In this document: positions 95 to 16,697 of the stretch, piece by piece
Numbering within the stretch: position 1 is the stretch's first letter
Layout: each line of letters begins with the position of its first letter
Assembly: GCA_020364185.1 (NCBI GenBank)
Contig: GCA_020364185.1_4846.1
Source: a phage
Length of the DNA: 47,086 bases
Strand: one strand, 5' to 3'
Notes under the pieces: generated by a model
The model's input: the letters and a program-made list of their open reading frames with translations, nothing else
The model's database searches: none
Told to the model about the DNA's origin: nothing
Program-made: the position numbers and the translations under genes

Positions 95-937
95 ATGAGC
101 TTATCAATGATTCAAAAACCAAAACCAGCAGCGCCAATCATAACATTGGTTGGTACTCCAGGTGTAGGCAAGACAACTCTTGCGGCGCTATTCCCAAACC
201 CAGTGTTTATTCAGGCTGAAGAGATCACTGGTGTTTTTGATGACTGGGATGATGAAAAGAAACCAGATTCATTTCCTGTACTGAAGCGAGCTGATGCTAA
301 ACGCAAAACAAGCACAAAGGATGATTTGCTGTCACAGCTACGCGCATTAATTACTGAGGAACATAATTACAAAACGCTTGTAATTGACTCAATCACAAGC
401 CTGCATTCAATGTTTGAGCATGAGGTTTGTGAAAATTACGGTGTTGACAACGTAGGTTCTGCGGCTGGTGGTTACAACAAAGGATATATTGTTGTTTCTG
501 AAATGCACGCTGAAATAATAAATGCATGTAAGTATCTTCGCAAAGAAAAAGGGATGAGCATTATTTATCTTGCACACGCAGGTGTTAAAAAGATGAAAAA
601 TCGCCCTGATGCTGATGAATACACTGTTTACACACTTGACATGCATGATGCTTCTGTTTCTGGCTATGTGAATCTTAGCGATGCTGTTATTTACATCAGG
701 AATGAGGAGTTCGTTAAAGGAACTGAGACTGATAAGAAAGGGCAGGTGACCAAGTTTGGAAAGGTTGTTCAGACTGGTCAGCGAGTTCTTATTACATCTG
801 GCGATGGTAGAGTTGGATATGTTAATGCAAAAAACAGATACAACCTTGAGCCTGAAATTCCTTTTGAAAAAGGTGAGAACCCACTTTTGAGTGAGATTAA
901 ATATTATGCATCTCTACGAGATAACCAAGCAGCTTAA
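95..937 (+). CDS. Sak4-like recombination ATPase (AAA_24 / RecA-like P-loop)
   Basis: 280-aa ORF with Walker A GTPGVGKTT near N-terminus and hydrophobic strand followed by D (Walker B-like LVIDSITS); ATG at 95 preceded by GAGAGGA RBS; first gene of a replication operon. Confidence 0.8.
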   Translation: MSLSMIQKPKPAAPIITLVGTPGVGKTTLAALFPNPVFIQAEEITGVFDDWDDEKKPDSFPVLKRADAKRKTSTKDDLLSQLRALITEEHNYKTLVIDSITSLHSMFEHEVCENYGVDNVGSAAGGYNKGYIVVSEMHAEIINACKYLRKEKGMSIIYLAHAGVKKMKNRPDADEYTVYTLDMHDASVSGYVNLSDAVIYIRNEEFVKGTETDKKGQVTKFGKVVQTGQRVLITSGDGRVGYVNAKNRYNLEPEIPFEKGENPLLSEIKYYASLRDNQAA

Positions 938-944
938 TGAACTG

Positions 945-1385
945 ATGGCGATGGAGGATATTCCACGGGAGCAGATTGAAGATACCATCAATCTTATTGA
1001 AGAGGAGTTTGAAGGAAAAGCTGAAATGGTCGCTGCTTACATTCGTGAGCTTGAAGCTGATGAAGCTGGACTTAAATCCGAGATTGACCGTCTTTCTGAG
1101 CGTAAGCGTGTTTTAGTTGCGAAGATTGATAACCTTAAAGATTATCTTCGTCAGAACATGATGGCGTCAGGAAAGACAAATATCAAAGGTAAGTTGTTCA
1201 GTATCACTCTTGGCAAAATGTCACCAGTTCTTGATGTGTTTGTCCCTGTTGAACAGCTTCCTGAGCAGTACCGCGTTGTGAAAGTGTCGGCAGATAACGC
1301 AGCAATTAAAAATGCGATAAAAGCCGGGATTGAAATTAAGGGTTGTGCCATCACCGACGGCAAACCAAAACTGATCATCAAATAA
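945..1385 (+). CDS. Gp157-family-like coiled-coil protein (Sak4-associated); start ambiguous (track start 891 overlaps upstream gene)
   Basis: ORF immediately after Sak4-like gene; charged coiled-coil N-terminal half (EEEFEGKAEMVAAYIRELEADEAGLKSEIDRLSERKR); ATG at 945 is first in-frame ATG after upstream stop at 935-937. Confidence 0.45.
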   Translation: MAMEDIPREQIEDTINLIEEEFEGKAEMVAAYIRELEADEAGLKSEIDRLSERKRVLVAKIDNLKDYLRQNMMASGKTNIKGKLFSITLGKMSPVLDVFVPVEQLPEQYRVVKVSADNAAIKNAIKAGIEIKGCAITDGKPKLIIK

Positions 1386-1402
1386 ATCGAGAGGACACAA
1401 AA

Positions 1403-1924
1403 ATGGGTTTCTGGAATCTTTCTGACGGTAAAGCTGTTGAATCTAAATCTGAATTTGAACTGGGTGGTGGTTTCGAAGTAATTCCTGATGGTAGTCGTGT
1501 TCTTGCTGCCGTTGAAGAATGTAAAGACGACCAGTGGGAAGGTGAGCGATTCTTCAATCTTAAGTGGCGAATCCTTGAGGGTGAGTATAAAAATCGCATC
1601 ATCTTTCAGAAGCTGAAAGTATTTAGCTCAAAAGAAAAGCAGCGCGACAATGCTATCACTATGCTTGCAGCAATTGACGCAAACGCCGGTGGCAAGCTGA
1701 TGGCTTCAGGTAAAGAGCCGACTGATTTTGCTATTGCCAGTGCGCTTGCAAATCGCCCAATGATTCTTCTTCTTCGCGTTTGGGAGTCTGAGGATAAGCA
1801 AAAAACTGGTAACTATGTGGCTGGTGTTTTCAGTCGTCAACAGACAAAAGCATCACCTACTCCTAAGCAATCAGCGCCATCTAACGAGCCTCCGATGGAT
1901 TTCGAAGAAGACGTTCCGTTTTGA
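1403..1924 (+). CDS. SSB-like protein with E. coli SSB-type acidic C-terminal tail (putative ssDNA-binding protein)
   Basis: ATG at 1403 preceded by AAATCGAGAGGACAC leader; C-terminus ...SAPSNEPPMDFEEDVPF closely resembles the E. coli SSB tail ...SNEPPMDFDDDIPF (recalled from memory); N-terminal body not obviously canonical. Confidence 0.55.
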   Translation: MGFWNLSDGKAVESKSEFELGGGFEVIPDGSRVLAAVEECKDDQWEGERFFNLKWRILEGEYKNRIIFQKLKVFSSKEKQRDNAITMLAAIDANAGGKLMASGKEPTDFAIASALANRPMILLLRVWESEDKQKTGNYVAGVFSRQQTKASPTPKQSAPSNEPPMDFEEDVPF

Positions 1925-1940
1925 TTTGGATTAGAATTAC

Positions 1941-1966
1941 GGGGCCATTCGTGGCCCTTTTTTATT
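1941..1966 (+). terminator. intrinsic terminator / attenuator between SSB-like gene and helicase
   Basis: GGGCCA-ttcg-TGGCCC perfect 6-bp stem followed by TTTTTTTAT. Confidence 0.55.
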
Positions 1967-1978
1967 CGAGAGGACACT

Positions 1979-3847
1979 ATGAAAGTACAGCTTAGAACAT
2001 ACCAACAAGAAGCTGTTGATTCTGTTATATGTCATATTCGTTCAAGCGTTTCATCGTGCATGATCATCTTGCCTACAGGGTCTGGGAAAAGCGTTGTTGT
2101 TGCATCAATCGCCGATTGGGTATTTAAAAATACTGGCAAGCGCGTTCTGTGCGTTGCCCCAACAAGCGAGTTAGTTGTACAAAACAGGCAGCGTTTTCTT
2201 TCTCTTACCGGCGAGCCAGCCAGCATGTTCAGTGCAAAGGCTGGCCCCAAAAACCTGCGTCACCCGGTAGTGTTTGGTTCACCAGTTACAATCAAGAACT
2301 CAATAGAGATGTTTGGTGATAAGTATGGTGCTGTCATTATTGATGAATGTGATGGAATAACGCCAACCATTAAATTCATTATTAATGAGATGAAGCGTCG
2401 CAATCCAAAACTGCGTGTTATTGGAATGACCGCTACGCCTTACCGCCTTGGAACTGGATACATCTACAAAGAGCATTACCTCGACGGTCCTACAGATGAA
2501 GAAACAGCCATAGACCCATATTACGACAAAGTCGTTTATGAGCTTGAAGCTAAATTTCTCATCGAAAACGGATACCTTACTCCGCCAGTAACAGAGCCTG
2601 TTTTTGACGAGTATGATACGTCTTGTCTTGAAAAGGATAAGTTGGGTCGGTACACGATAGCTTCAGTTGAAAAGGCGATGGTTGGAAAAGGAAGAAAAAC
2701 ATCACGTATTGTTGAAGATATTATCCGTCGCTCTGTTAATCGGCGAGGAACGATGATTTTTGCCAGCACCAAGAAACACGCTATGGAGATAATGGAGTCA
2801 CTTCCTCCCGGTTCTTATAGTTATGTTTTTGGTGATATGCCGACAACGGAACGCAATAAGGCAATATCAGACTTCAAGGCGCAAAAAGTTAAATACATCG
2901 TTAACCAAAATATCCTTACTGTAGGGGTTGATGTTCCTCATTGTGATCACATAGCAGTAATGAGAGCCACAGAATCACCAAGGCTCTATCAGCAAATAAT
3001 TGGCAGGGGGACGCGTCTTTATGAAGGAAAGGAAGATTTTCTTGTCAGCGATTACGCAGGCAACATTCAGCGCCACTTTTCTGCGACTGGGGACTTATTC
3101 ACTCCAGAAATAAAAGCAACAAGGAAAAAACCATCCGTGCCAATGGATGTCAAATGCCCTCTTTGTGGCTTTATTAATGAATTTGGCGTGCGCCCAAATC
3201 CTGAAAATCTTGAAGTTGACAATGAGGGGTACTGGCTTGATCTGGCTGGTGACAGGGTTATGATTGACATTTTTGATAAATCAGGTGAAAAAGTTGGAAG
3301 AAAGCCAATGCCAGCTCATTTTGGCAGGAGGTGTAAAAACTATGTTATGCAAGGACCATTAAGAGAAATGCACAGATGCACTTATAAATGGTCGGTAAAA
3401 GAATGTCCTGATTGTGGATTTGAAAATGATATAGCGGCAAGAAACTGCACATCATGCGGATCTGAAATCATTGACCCAAACCAAAAGCTAAAAGAAGAAG
3501 CTGACAGGCTTGATTCTTCTCCTTATGCAACCAAGCAATCAAGTGTAACCATGATGAATATCATGAAGCATTACGTTTCAAGCGGAGAAGACTTGGTGCA
3601 CGTGAAATTTGCTATTGAGCACAAGCCATTTTTTGTTAGCAAGTTCTACAATCCAAACTCTGAGAAGGAATGGATGAGGAAGGAGTGGGAAGAGTTTTGC
3701 AGTAAGTGCTTTGATGAATCTGACATGTCAATTGATGATGCAATAGCAAAAAGAGATGAGGCTGTCGCGCCATCAGTGATTATGTTCAGAAGAGATAAGG
3801 GTAGTAAATATTTCAACGTTAAAGGCATGTATTGGGGGGTATTATGA
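1979..3847 (+). CDS. SF2 DEAD/DEAH-box DNA helicase with C-terminal Zn-ribbon motifs
   Basis: 622-aa ORF; Walker A LPTGSGKS, DEAD-box-like IIDECD, SAT-like MTATP; two CxxC pairs (CPLCG, CPDCG / CTSCG) in C-terminal region. Confidence 0.8.
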   Translation: MKVQLRTYQQEAVDSVICHIRSSVSSCMIILPTGSGKSVVVASIADWVFKNTGKRVLCVAPTSELVVQNRQRFLSLTGEPASMFSAKAGPKNLRHPVVFGSPVTIKNSIEMFGDKYGAVIIDECDGITPTIKFIINEMKRRNPKLRVIGMTATPYRLGTGYIYKEHYLDGPTDEETAIDPYYDKVVYELEAKFLIENGYLTPPVTEPVFDEYDTSCLEKDKLGRYTIASVEKAMVGKGRKTSRIVEDIIRRSVNRRGTMIFASTKKHAMEIMESLPPGSYSYVFGDMPTTERNKAISDFKAQKVKYIVNQNILTVGVDVPHCDHIAVMRATESPRLYQQIIGRGTRLYEGKEDFLVSDYAGNIQRHFSATGDLFTPEIKATRKKPSVPMDVKCPLCGFINEFGVRPNPENLEVDNEGYWLDLAGDRVMIDIFDKSGEKVGRKPMPAHFGRRCKNYVMQGPLREMHRCTYKWSVKECPDCGFENDIAARNCTSCGSEIIDPNQKLKEEADRLDSSPYATKQSSVTMMNIMKHYVSSGEDLVHVKFAIEHKPFFVSKFYNPNSEKEWMRKEWEEFCSKCFDESDMSIDDAIAKRDEAVAPSVIMFRRDKGSKYFNVKGMYWGVL

Positions 3848-4299
3848 TTTTTCCAGAAGGCGTTAAGGTATATGGTGATTTAGATTACAGAAACAAAAAA
3901 TGCCCGTCAGAAGATGCTGAGCTGGAGACTTTTGTTAATCAGATAAGGAAGATATATCCTGACTTTGCAAGGGTTATGATTCATGTTCCAAATGAAGGCA
4001 AGCGCAAGGGATATGAAGTTGAAAATCTTAAGAAGAAGGGCGCGTTAAATTTCGGAGCATCAGACATTATCATTAACGGAAAGCAATCATTCGTTATGGA
4101 GATGAAGAGAATGGATCATACTTTATCAAAATGGCAGCCCGGTCAAATGGCATACCTAAAGGCGGCAAAAGAATTAGGTTCCTTCGCGTGTGTATGCCTT
4201 GGTTGGGAGGCTGCAATGATGGCATTTAACGACTGGAGAGCAATGAATTACCCAAACTATAAAAAACCATCAGAGCCATTGATATTTGATGGTTTTTAG
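3844..4299 (+). CDS. VRR-NUC domain nuclease (PD-(D/E)xK)
   Basis: ATG at 3844 overlaps helicase stop (ATGA); preceded by GGGGGG; motif GASDIIINGK...FVMEMKR fits D...E-x-K nuclease core; ends with TAG (amber) at 4297-4299. Confidence 0.7.
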   Translation: MIFPEGVKVYGDLDYRNKKCPSEDAELETFVNQIRKIYPDFARVMIHVPNEGKRKGYEVENLKKKGALNFGASDIIINGKQSFVMEMKRMDHTLSKWQPGQMAYLKAAKELGSFACVCLGWEAAMMAFNDWRAMNYPNYKKPSEPLIFDGF

Positions 4300-4419
4300 C
4301 AACAACGCCAGCAATCAGGCCAGCAACCGCAACGACAGCAGCAACAGCGATCAAAACAACAAAGCCCACAAATAGGCAATGAGCCTCCGGTTGGTTTTGA
4401 TGATTCAATACCCTTCTGA
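4300..4419 (+). other. in-frame 39-codon extension after amber stop encoding an SSB-type C-terminal tail (QQRQQSGQQPQRQQQQRSKQQSPQIGNEPPVGFDDSIPF*)
   Basis: direct translation of frame continuing from VRR-NUC TAG; no internal ATG; ends GNEPPVGFDDSIPF then TGA. Confidence 0.4.
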
Positions 4420-4430
4420 TGATAAAACTA

Positions 4431-4458
4431 ACCCCGCCGAAGCGGGGTTTTTGTTGTT
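4431..4458. terminator. bidirectional intrinsic terminator between convergent replication operon and tail module
   Basis: ACCCCGC-cgaa-GCGGGGT stem-loop followed by TTTTTGTTGTT on plus strand and a U-rich tract on minus strand. Confidence 0.65.
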
Positions 4459-4464
4459 ATAATA

Positions 4465-6609
4465 TTAATCAGCGTAAAACATCAAGAACATAATAAGCTC
4501 ATCATAGCGTATTCCGTACCTTACTCCAGCTGGTTTAACCGTTACAACTTCCTCTAACGTTTCTGGATTAATGCTTCTTTCAGAAGATTCTTCCCACTCG
4601 TCCTTGCACCAGAATGCGTAATCCTCTGGTTTAAGTCCATGCTTTGTTAGGATAGAACCAACGGTTTGCGCACCAACACCGAAGTGTGTCCGTGCAGACT
4701 CTTTTCCCTTAAGTTCTATAGCGTCAGTAAACTTATAGCGAATAATATTCTTGCGAATTTCATTGGCCGCTTCCCTTTCCGCACTCTCGTTTGTTGCCTG
4801 GGCTTTTACCTTCAGCGTTTCATCCGATGTGCTTATTGTGCCCGTGGCAGCATAGACAACAGACCATCTATTTGATGTATATCCTAATACGGTCGCATTG
4901 TCTGTATCAGGCATGAATCCATTGTATCCACTAATCTTAAGGTCGCCATTTGGGTTTCCTGATGATGTTTTACCATCATGGCTGGTCAGGGTTACTCCTT
5001 TTGTCCCGGTAGCGGTTGTTATCAAGATACCGGCGTGGGTAGCACCCAGAAGCTGAATTTCGCTATTATCGTTGCGTAAATCCTGCGCAGGTGCCTCTAG
5101 CACAGATGACGTGAATTTCCATTTCGTATCAGAAAAAAGTTCGACCGGTTGTACGCCATCCTTCTGATACATAATGGCTTTAACCCCGGAGTCCTTGCGT
5201 CTTACACCGATGGCATTTGGTTGCGACCCGGACCAGTTAGACGCGAAAGTAAACCCGTCAAATTCCACCAATGACTCATAAGGATTGCTGGTATCGTTAT
5301 TGATGGGTTCTGTAATAAAAATCCATCCCCAGTCGAAATAGTTATTATAAGTCCCTACGTTAGCATCTATCTGATACGCCCGGGTGCATACCCCCCCATA
5401 GTAACCGTAGAATCTCAGGTTCCCGGCAACTTGTGAGTCGGAGCTTACGGTTTTAACCACGCGCACACCACACGGCACATCTGCGGGACCCGTCGTTTTG
5501 GTTATATTCTCACAAGAGCCGCCAAACACCCGAAGTGAGTCCGTGCTTTCAATCCAGAACGCACAGTTTCCCGTTACGTGAACTGGGTTGTAAATAGTGA
5601 TTCTGGTATTGTTGTTGTCACCTGAAACACTCCGATTGAATCTAAACCCGCAGTCAACGTTTTCAAATACTGGATTTTTTATGGTGTGGTAATACGCGCC
5701 GCTGTTAGCCCCAGAAACTGTTGGTCCTGGTTGCAGTAACACCCCTACAGACACGTCTGTCGCTTTTGGGTTGTTAAGCTGACAAAACTGTTGCGATACA
5801 CGCGTAGTAGTTTGTGTAAGATCTTCTGGGCTTATTGCGTATGCCACTACCTCTGTGAAACCATCTGGATTTATTACCGCAGGGTTGGTTACGATACAGA
5901 AATCATGACTCATTCGTAGACATGTTATGCCAGAAGCTCCTGCTACGATTGTCGTACCAGTGAAATCAATATACCTTGTAGATGTAACATCCTGCGTATA
6001 CGAGCCATCGAACTTCATCACAAGACTTTGTGTTATGCGATATCTCGCACCTACTCTTCCTGTTAATTTACCAAACGGCACCCCTTCCAACCACGACAAT
6101 GCCGCCAGCATCGCGGAGGTATCATTAGTTACCCCGTCGCCAATGGCACCGAACTCTTCAAATGACTTTATTGTCGTAACTCGATGGGCAATCTGGTCAA
6201 TTGTTGCACCATGCTTTGTTAGATCAGTTCTAATAGACGCATCACCAACACTAACCCACGCTCCCAGACCAATGCCACCGGAAGTTTCAGGAGCTGAGCC
6301 AGATGGTACGGTTTTAGGAAACGCACCATCCCAACGGTAATATTCTCCGGTAGCTTCATAACGCAAAACCTGATTTGGTAGTGTCAGTGTCGCCCCATCT
6401 TCAAAGCTATCCATTGTTATGTAGCCATAATTACGGATAGCCTCTTCTGCGGTGTACTGAAAACCAGCAATTGTCCAGCGGCGTACACCGAATCGGTCGG
6501 TGTAGTAATGCGCGTCAGAGTTGACAACTTCGTCAATTTTCCCTGCATTAAATTTCAGGTCTCGCGGGTCTTCTGACGGAATTGGTTTATTGGTTGGTGT
6601 GGTAGACAT
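4465..6609 (-). CDS. tail fibre / tailspike with C-terminal intramolecular chaperone (peptidase S74-like) domain
   Basis: 714 aa from ATG at 6609 (AAGGAG RBS 9 nt upstream); Gly/Ser/Thr-rich beta-rich body; C-terminal region ...SNRWSVVYAATGTISTSDETLKVKAQ...IRYKFTDAIELKG... resembles autocleaving chaperone of endosialidase-type fibres. Confidence 0.7.
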   Translation of the reverse strand: MSTTPTNKPIPSEDPRDLKFNAGKIDEVVNSDAHYYTDRFGVRRWTIAGFQYTAEEAIRNYGYITMDSFEDGATLTLPNQVLRYEATGEYYRWDGAFPKTVPSGSAPETSGGIGLGAWVSVGDASIRTDLTKHGATIDQIAHRVTTIKSFEEFGAIGDGVTNDTSAMLAALSWLEGVPFGKLTGRVGARYRITQSLVMKFDGSYTQDVTSTRYIDFTGTTIVAGASGITCLRMSHDFCIVTNPAVINPDGFTEVVAYAISPEDLTQTTTRVSQQFCQLNNPKATDVSVGVLLQPGPTVSGANSGAYYHTIKNPVFENVDCGFRFNRSVSGDNNNTRITIYNPVHVTGNCAFWIESTDSLRVFGGSCENITKTTGPADVPCGVRVVKTVSSDSQVAGNLRFYGYYGGVCTRAYQIDANVGTYNNYFDWGWIFITEPINNDTSNPYESLVEFDGFTFASNWSGSQPNAIGVRRKDSGVKAIMYQKDGVQPVELFSDTKWKFTSSVLEAPAQDLRNDNSEIQLLGATHAGILITTATGTKGVTLTSHDGKTSSGNPNGDLKISGYNGFMPDTDNATVLGYTSNRWSVVYAATGTISTSDETLKVKAQATNESAEREAANEIRKNIIRYKFTDAIELKGKESARTHFGVGAQTVGSILTKHGLKPEDYAFWCKDEWEESSERSINPETLEEVVTVKPAGVRYGIRYDELIMFLMFYAD

Positions 6610-6648
6610 TATAATAAATGCTCCTTTGTGAATTTGATGCATATTGTA

Positions 6649-9977
<3,329 letters not shown>

Positions 9978-16620: not shown

Positions 16621-16697
16621 GGACGCGTAGCTTAATTGGTTAAAGCAACCGACTCATAATCGGCTGATTGAAGGTTCAAATCCGTCCGTGTCCACCA
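16621..16697 (+). tRNA. tRNA-Met (anticodon CAU; could be initiator/elongator Met or lysidine-modified Ile2)
   Basis: manual fold: 7-bp acceptor stem (one G-U), U8, D-arm GCTT/AAGC with GG in loop, anticodon loop CUCAUAA, T-loop TTCAAAT, discriminator A and encoded CCA; two stem mismatches. Confidence 0.6.

Follow-up and report, generated by a model that had tools for sequence, protein, structure and literature searches.

We analyzed an open reading frame (ORF) at positions 1403-1924 of a 47,086-nucleotide (nt) stretch of phage DNA (NCBI GenBank assembly GCA_020364185.1, contig GCA_020364185.1_4846.1; hereafter the window), together with the genes and signals around it. We consider it highly likely (probability about 0.88) that this ORF encodes the phage's own SSB (a protein that binds single-stranded DNA), of the DUF669 type. 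The gene and its immediate signals are as follows.

1389-1395, plus strand: Shine-Dalgarno-like sequence GAGAGGA, 7 nt upstream of the ATG at 1403, read from the sequence
1403-1924, plus strand: DUF669-family phage SSB gene, 173 amino acids plus stop, from ATG 1403 to TGA 1922-1924
1475-1837, plus strand: predicted OB-fold core, residues ~25-145
1838-1873, plus strand: disordered linker, residues ~146-157, placed from the family alignment and a pLDDT below 50 from residue 148
1874-1921, plus strand: SSB-type C-terminal tail APSNEPPMDFEEDVPF, residues 158-173, matching E. coli ssb
1941-1963, plus strand: intrinsic-terminator-like hairpin followed by six T, found by terminator scan (stem 1941-1958, loop ATTC, T-run 1958-1963)

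A preliminary description of this DNA, made from the sequence alone, had proposed a 173-residue product and quoted its C-terminal end. The ORF and its ending ...PTPKQSAPSNEPPMDFEEDVPF are as described there, the C-terminal peptide of the product being PSNEPPMDFEEDVPF. Translation is taken to start at ATG 1403 because all homologs begin M-[GS]-F-W-N, and an upstream TTG at 1343 was rejected on the same grounds. The start lies behind a 12-nt string, TCGAGAGGACAC, which occurs at 1387-1398 and again at 1966-1977, ahead of the start of the downstream helicase gene; these repeats are a translation-initiation context common to the two genes and are kept in most relatives.

Family and predicted fold of the protein body

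The product belongs to a family that is already recognised as phage SSBs. It matches PHROG 9002, 'single strand DNA binding protein', from end to end (residues 1-173, E=1.8e-68), and Pfam PF05037 (DUF669) over residues 23-137 with 25.4 bits against a gathering threshold of 21. Shigella phage Sf11 (Cedarrivervirus) and its relatives share ~95% identity with the window, and proteins 95-97% identical to the product carry the SSB label in RefSeq in Sf11 (gp9), YX3973 and Sa179lw. More broadly, the family profile matches 909 clusters at 50% identity, and homologs are found in 161 GenBank phage records, chiefly from phages of Vibrio, Brucella, Klebsiella and Escherichia.

The preliminary description had remarked that the N-terminal body does not resemble a canonical SSB, and every comparison agrees: the OB domain of E. 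coli SSB gives no BLASTP match to residues 1-145, the canonical SSB family PF00436 is not matched by the product at E<=1, and the NCBIfam SSB model PRK09010 reaches residues 138-173 only, at 24.5 bits against a cut-off of 260. Searching the PDB with the single sequence recovered a match to the tail only, and a PDB profile search with the family alignment returned nothing significant (best E=0.17, spurious).

Profile search and structure prediction for an OB fold had been suggested as a check, and besides the PF05037 and PHROG 9002 matches they yielded an OB-fold model. The AlphaFold2 prediction, built with 54 homologs, reaches a pLDDT of 84-93 over residues 31-140 and orders its elements as strand 1 (31-45), strand 2 (48-57), strand 3 (66-71), three helices (78-115), strand 4 (120-128) and strand 5 (135-143), so that the body can be confidently modelled as an OB fold whose helical insert, between strands 3 and 4, is enlarged to three helices. 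Residues W55, R65, F68 and W127 are invariant among homologs and fall on predicted strands, at positions that would correspond to those where OB-fold SSBs stack bases. Residues 148-173 are disordered in the model (pLDDT <50), and the linker at ~146-157 varies in both length and sequence across the family.

A tblastn search of the 47-kb window with E. coli SSB detected no second OB domain and only two tail segments, the second of which belongs to a 39-codon fragment rather than to a complete ssb gene. The window thus has no other recognisable SSB, which is the setting, phages that lack any other SSB, in which DUF669 proteins were predicted to serve as the replication SSB; the same study noted their acidic tails and linked DUF669 to the SSB of phage N4 (gp45) with 98% HHsearch probability (Kazlauskas et al., 2016; PMC4889955). 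The genes on either side, which form one rightward block with the SSB gene, are listed here.

95-937, plus strand: Sak4-like RecA-fold ATPase / single-stranded-DNA (ssDNA) annealase (Pfam AAA_24, E=1.9e-27; PHROG 124, 'Sak4-like ssDNA annealing protein', E=5.9e-46)
906-1385, plus strand: Siphovirus Gp157 / Mu Gam-like protein (Pfam PF05565, E=5.2e-38; PHROG 253)
1979-3847, plus strand: superfamily-2 helicase with a zinc-ribbon C-terminal region (Pfam ResIII, Helicase_C and DEAD; PHROG 16)
3844-4299, plus strand: small nuclease-like protein ending ...PLIFDGF-TAG (PHROG 824, function unknown, only)

The Sak4-like gene lies one gene away from the SSB gene, a proximity that would be expected of a Sak4-cognate SSB, and its product falls in the same Pfam family (AAA_24) as the Sak4 of phage HK620. 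The Gp157/Gam-like ORF opens at GTG 891, and its start at ATG 906 agrees with the Sf11 annotation. The ORF at 3844-4299 has no Pfam match, so the nuclease call follows the VRR-NUC annotation of its relatives. Sf11 is annotated with a primase-polymerase, and a replicative DNA polymerase is not listed. Elsewhere, the window carries a single tRNA-Met (CAT) gene at 16621-16697 on the plus strand, where Sf11 annotates tRNA-Ser and tRNA-Arg instead.

Origin of the host-like tail and a scar of a displaced ssb gene

The near-identity of the tail to that of E. coli SSB, pointed out in the preliminary description, is recovered by three approaches. At the protein level, APSNEPPMDFEEDVPF and its E. coli counterpart APSNEPPMDFDDDIPF share 14 of 16 residues, with conservative differences. 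A phmmer search against all PDB sequences, which makes no prior assumption about the match, finds it over residues ~130-173 (E ~1e-3), with E. coli and Klebsiella SSB chains as the sole meaningful hits. At the DNA level, the final 85 nt were searched with blastn in 5,426 complete E. coli genomes, and 5,166 of these give a match at the 3' end of ssb (53 nt, 86.8%, E=6e-8). In a codon-wise comparison with E. coli ssb, 46 of the final 54 nt agree, and four of the 14 identical-residue codons differ synonymously; over the 16 tail codons the agreement is 41/48 nt, four of the differences being synonymous and three changing an amino acid (D to E twice, I to V).

Two layers can be distinguished within this tail. 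The tip, canonically D-D-D-I-P-F, reads EEDVPF in the window and DDDIPF in Sf11 and in a metagenomic relative (IMGVR_UViG_3300045988_027122, hereafter L011), and 120 of 156 family representatives end in a hydrophobic residue followed by [PG]-F (81 of them IPF), mostly after two to four acidic residues; an SSB-type tip is therefore ancestral to the family. In contrast, neither NEPP nor MDF occurs in any of the 156 representatives, all from outside the enteric lineage, so the ten additional host-identical residues, with the extended NEPPMDF stretch, are specific to that lineage. The tails of 19 related genomes read SAPSNEPPMDF[DES][DES]D[IV]PF or EEPP[VM]DFDDD[VI]PF.

The strongest DNA evidence on the origin of this stretch comes from relatives rather than from the window copy. 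In Sf11 and L011 the tail is identical to that of E. coli SSB at 16 of 16 residues, and its 16 codons match chromosomal E. coli ssb at 44/48 nt in Sf11 (4877-4924) and 47/48 nt in L011; by our own estimate from typical E. coli codon frequencies, a chance match of the 14 degenerate codons in L011 has a probability of ~4e-6. Tail-coding DNA therefore moves between unrelated SSB genes. These alignments indicate that the host-like stretch was gained through exchange of DNA with canonical ssb genes, be they from the host, prophages, plasmids or co-infecting phages, and it has probably been refreshed repeatedly by the same route. That the window phage itself recently took over the host tail as a whole was considered and rejected: at 41/48 nt, with its four synonymous and three amino-acid-changing differences, the window copy points to an exchange that is not very recent, the copy being older or more diverged.

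The second tail segment of the window lies 2.4 kb downstream, at the end of the rightward block.

4300-4419, plus strand: scar of a displaced canonical ssb, 39 codons comprising a Q-rich linker and IGNEPPVGFDDSIPF, then TGA, with no start codon of its own
4430-4449, no strand assigned: bidirectional terminator hairpin AACCCCGCCGAAGCGGGGTT, separating the rightward replication module from the tail-fibre gene that converges on it
4465-6642, minus strand: convergent tail-fibre gene

The frame of this fragment continues in register right after the nuclease stop TAG (4297-4299) for 39 codons, QQRQQSGQQPQRQQQQRSKQQSPQIGNEPPVGFDDSIPF; the junction reads ...LIFDGF-X-QQRQQSG, where X is the stop position, and the translation ends ...GNEPPVGFDDSIPF. 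Over its whole length the fragment matches, at 82-89%, the 3' end of an intact bacterial-type ssb in ~100 related siphoviruses, including Segz_1, KFS-SE2, SeSz-2, HC6 and ASO78B. In those phages ssb closes an exonuclease-recombinase-SSB module as the final rightward gene ahead of the same terminator and tail-fibre gene, and the terminator at 4430-4449 is identical to the one annotated after the intact ssb of ASO78B. This shared position and module indicate that the window lineage swapped exonuclease-recombinase-SSB for Sak4-Gam-DUF669-helicase-nuclease, leaving the fragment as a scar. Simple deletion from an ASO78B-like genome was rejected as its origin, as the gene in the corresponding position (066) shares just 29% identity with the window nuclease and has a different end; the junction is thus a mosaic breakpoint rather than a recent internal deletion.

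The scar is present in all 18 unique related genomes that carry this type of nuclease, which fall into two clades. In the clade of the window (clade A, 10 unique genomes) it always follows in register after TAG (eight genomes) or TAA (two), every indel has a length divisible by three, and an internal TAG occurs in one genome. In the sister clade (clade B, eight genomes, nuclease ~65% identical) a version of 22-24 codons, MKPSNTQKPPANEPPMDFDDDIPF, stands directly after the stop, for instance at 5110-5187 in Klebsiella phage RSU-F4K5 (L008) and from ~3969 in the relatives L018-L026, and it forms a mini-ORF whose ATG abuts the nuclease stop (TGA-ATG) in seven of the eight, with ATT in L022. Over the last 13 scar codons, pN/pS (Nei-Gojobori) is 0.11 in clade A and 0.03 in clade B, a strong constraint in the latter, while the clade-B scar linker, at ~1.1, evolves neutrally. 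In the window itself PVGF replaces PMDF and the linker carries several changes, so that this copy looks as if it is decaying.

We believe the scar is probably untranslated, and in our reading its coding-like appearance would be maintained by recombination at the border of a frequently exchanged tail-fibre cassette. It is improbable, if consistent with a frame that is open and in register in 17 of the 18 unique genomes across two clades, that this second SSB tail is expressed. Expression would proceed by stop read-through in clade A, where leaky decoding of UAG-C or UAA-C would extend some of the nuclease molecules by an SSB linker and tail of 39 residues, and by termination-reinitiation in clade B, where the abutting ATG would give a free SSB-tail peptide of 22-24 residues. 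Were this the case, the product would fit the same pockets as SSB tails and could recruit the nuclease to Sak4, to the helicase or to host clients of SSB, or else compete with host SSB for these partners. Sf11 gp12 (YP_010053056.1, positions 7288-7470), a 60-residue 'hypothetical protein' annotated over the scar, was rejected as a gene: it is read in another frame and extends across the terminator hairpin, and the equivalent frame is cut to 29 codons in the window, which makes it a probably spurious gene call.

The scar also bears on how the SSB tail arose. Within clade A the synonymous divergence of the scar tail is 0.79 against 0.22 in the adjacent nuclease gene, the pattern of imported segments rather than of evolution in situ. 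Moreover, synonymous variants are common to the scar tail and the DUF669 tail more within than between genomes (permutation p=0.006, clade A), as would fit gene conversion or a common donor. Alternatively, selection on a short motif could have produced a host-like tail by convergence only, with no DNA transferred from canonical ssb. This is possible if doubtful. It would account for the acidic ...D-D-[IV]-[PG]-F tip seen family-wide, including in phages of Vibrio, Brucella and Pseudomonas, for the intermediate forms EEPPVDYDDDIPF and EPSVDYDEDIGF in more distant enteric relatives, and for the synonymous differences in four of the 14 identical-residue codons of the window copy; it accounts poorly for the nucleotide-level match of the 16 tail codons of L011 (47/48) and Sf11 (44/48) to E. 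coli ssb, for the absence of NEPP and MDF from the 156 representatives outside the enteric lineage, for the within-genome co-variation of the two tails and for the divergence of the scar tail relative to its neighbour. DNA exchange remains our preferred explanation for the enteric-specific stretch.

Exchange is also visible elsewhere in the module. One genome, L014 (IMGVR_UViG_3300045988_071939), combines a clade-A nuclease 97% identical to that of the window with a clade-B-type DUF669 SSB (178 amino acids, …EEPPMDFDEDIPF), a mosaic that indicates recombination within the replication module itself.

A hairpin between the SSB and helicase genes

The preliminary description had placed a hairpin terminator at 1941-1966, and a stem (GGGGCCATTCGTGGCCCT, 1941-1958) with its T-run is indeed found there; the region folds at -16 kcal/mol (z=-2.5). 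A GC-rich hairpin with a T-run lies 13-25 nt 3' of the SSB stop in 19/19 relatives. In 14 of them it is a type-1 hairpin, GGGCCATTCGTGGCCC, while the other five carry an unrelated one, GCCCC-loop-GGGGC, with a small inserted ORF after it. That two non-homologous hairpins occupy the same position argues for selection on function rather than on sequence. The helicase Shine-Dalgarno begins 4 nt past the T-run, and no promoter-like site was seen between the T-run and the helicase, a gap that leaves no room for one, so that mRNA for the helicase and nuclease must come from read-through.

The earlier suggestion that the SSB is expressed above the helicase is therefore reasonable, and production of SSB in excess is a sensible expectation from this arrangement: the hairpin would attenuate transcription after the SSB gene. 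It is unlikely, in our view, that the hairpin at 1941-1963 is something other than an attenuator, be it a full terminator (the helicase then being transcribed from elsewhere), an mRNA-stabilising 3' structure or a chance hairpin. Such readings draw on the facts that attenuation is deduced from sequence, that a consensus scan finds terminator-like sites about as often as in shuffled sequence (9 vs 5.9 +/- 2.6), and that the stem is invariant among type-1 genomes, which deprives it of covariation support, but they sit poorly with a hairpin and T-run kept in every relative, five times in non-homologous form, and with a helicase ribosome-binding site so close behind it and no promoter-like site seen there.

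The SSB-helicase gap (1925-1978 in the window) is also an insertion hotspot, as seen in L005, L006, L007, L011-L013, L016, L020, L022 and L026. Sa179lw has an additional ORF of 71 amino acids in this gap; gmqsjt-1, L011-L013 and L016 have one beginning MYEVICDYCN together with a different terminator, and in L020, L022 and L026 there is a related ORF. The helicase ORF of YX3973 exceeds the others by ~960 nt and is mis-annotated as 'terminase large subunit'; it may contain an intein or mobile insertion.

Proposed function and comparison with known systems

Taken together, profile search, predicted fold, synteny and public annotation back the suggestion, already raised in the preliminary description, of a divergent SSB. 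We propose that the OB-fold core (residues ~25-145) coats ssDNA arising from replication and recombination, while the ~12-residue disordered linker would present the acidic, phenylalanine-ended tip MDFEEDVPF for docking into pockets that recognise SSB tails. On the phage side, by analogy with HK620, the likely partner is the Sak4-like annealase two genes upstream, and possibly the downstream helicase. Host SSB clients such as the chi subunit of Pol III, primase and PriA would probably be recruited as well, given that the tail is essentially that of the host and that no DNA polymerase is annotated in Sf11. DNA exchange with canonical ssb genes would then keep the tail-coding end host-like in the enteric lineage, and the hairpin after the gene would leave SSB in excess over helicase and nuclease. 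For the window protein we infer ssDNA binding, oligomeric state and the identity of its partners, as well as the strength of the terminator. The second option of the preliminary description, a protein that uses its tail to engage SSB-binding partners, is compatible with a divergent SSB and not an alternative to it, as suggested by the conservation of the tail in the family and by the HK620 precedent.

That the protein is instead a tail-bearing decoy, a non-SSB soaking up or redirecting host SSB-binding proteins such as ExoI, RecQ, PriA and chi as a takeover or anti-defence factor, is very improbable: its tail is almost the host's own and refreshed from canonical ssb DNA, and its body lacks sequence similarity to canonical SSB, but that body is a confidently predicted OB fold whose nearest structural neighbours are nucleic-acid-binding OB domains, invariant aromatic and basic residues lie on its strands, the same architecture is kept across phages of many hosts, the window holds no other SSB, the gene sits within a recombination/replication operon near Sak4, and a conserved 120-residue OB core would be needless in a decoy. 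A literature search for phage SSB-tail mimics or decoys found nothing relevant.

Several points weigh against assigning the protein as an SSB that works in this way. The PF05037 score is just 4 bits over threshold, the AlphaFold2 model is moderate overall (mean pLDDT 76, pTM 0.64), and in the Sf11-type subfamily the call draws on profiles, fold prediction, synteny and annotation rather than biochemistry. Dependence on the host polymerase would follow only from the missing Sf11 annotation. Homology to the HK620 SSB was not found: BLASTP gives E=33, hhalign returns a probability of 0.1% with either a single sequence or a 35-sequence profile (profiles in this comparison being shallow, Neff ~2.7), the HK620 protein has no Pfam match at E<=1, and it belongs to a different PHROG, 743. 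The window and HK620-type models share only the general OB order and a glycine-rich segment, modelled with low confidence, at residues 17-23. Finally, PrgE of plasmid pCF10 binds double-stranded as well as single-stranded DNA, and its authors describe an OB-fold protein strikingly different from prototypical SSBs (PMC11137577).

If the assignment holds, ORF 1403-1924 is to be annotated as a phage SSB of the DUF669 type and as the probable partner of the Sak4-like annealase, which would be useful should the module be searched for recombineering tools. Prior work had already described both the family and what its tail does; the present analysis contributes the chimeric nature of the tail at the DNA level and the remnant left by the displaced ssb. 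With its ~16 codons, the SSB docking tail emerges as a portable cassette, grafted and kept current by DNA exchange between unrelated OB-fold bodies, and the downstream scar as a concrete case of non-orthologous SSB displacement in which a host-compatible interaction motif is retained.

Among known systems, the direct homologs of the window protein are the DUF669/PHROG 9002 SSBs, such as Sf11 gp9, ORF45 of Listonella phage phiHSIC and the protein of Brucella phage Pr. They share its length, OB core, linker and acidic aromatic tail, at 95-97% identity in Sf11-like phages and 37-47% in marine and Brucella phages, while the extended host-identical NEPPMDF stretch is confined to the enteric lineage. 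Through the published link to DUF669, the N4 SSB (gp45) offers a further parallel, being likewise a phage replication and recombination SSB with a functional C-terminus (PMC4889955).

The structure most similar to the window protein is PrgE (PDB 8S4S/8S4T), with close similarity to 8S4S at 15-17% identity. PrgE binds ssDNA as beads on a string through its N-terminal tail and binds double-stranded DNA equally well (PMC11137577). Its visible C-terminus carries on as a helix, with no report of an SSB-type tip.

The HK620 protein HkaK, labelled DUF669 and encoded beside sak4, was shown to be a genuine ssDNA-binding SSB, apparently tetrameric, whose last six residues are required both for Sak4 to bind ssDNA coated with the SSB and for annealing and recombineering to be stimulated (Hutinet et al., 2018; PMC5928155); NCBI names its homologs 'DUF669 domain-containing protein'. 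Like the window SSB, it is encoded near a Sak4-family annealase and has a disordered C-terminus ending P-F. However, hkaK is directly adjacent to hkaL (sak4), whereas in the window the Gp157/Gam-like gene lies between the two, and the HK620 tail reads NDYPPF, which is not DDDIPF-like. Modelled in AlphaFold2 through the 98% identical P0268, the HK620-type protein runs strand-strand-strand-helix-strand-strand, an order comparable to that of the window model; in both models residues 17-23 form a glycine-rich stretch of low confidence and the tail is disordered. With no detectable homology, we claim HK620 as an analogy and a shared label only: its mechanism may serve as a working model for the window protein, and not as a family assignment.

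E. coli SSB (PF00436) shows the reverse pattern. Its last 16 residues are near-identical to those of the window protein and related at the DNA level, and in both proteins a disordered linker precedes the tip, so that the same mechanism of partner docking is presumed. Its OB domain, by contrast, is unrelated in sequence to the window body and has one helix in place of the three-helix insert, and its linker spans ~50 residues before the conserved tail rather than ~12. Overall, the window protein is an ordinary member of its family with a chimeric history.

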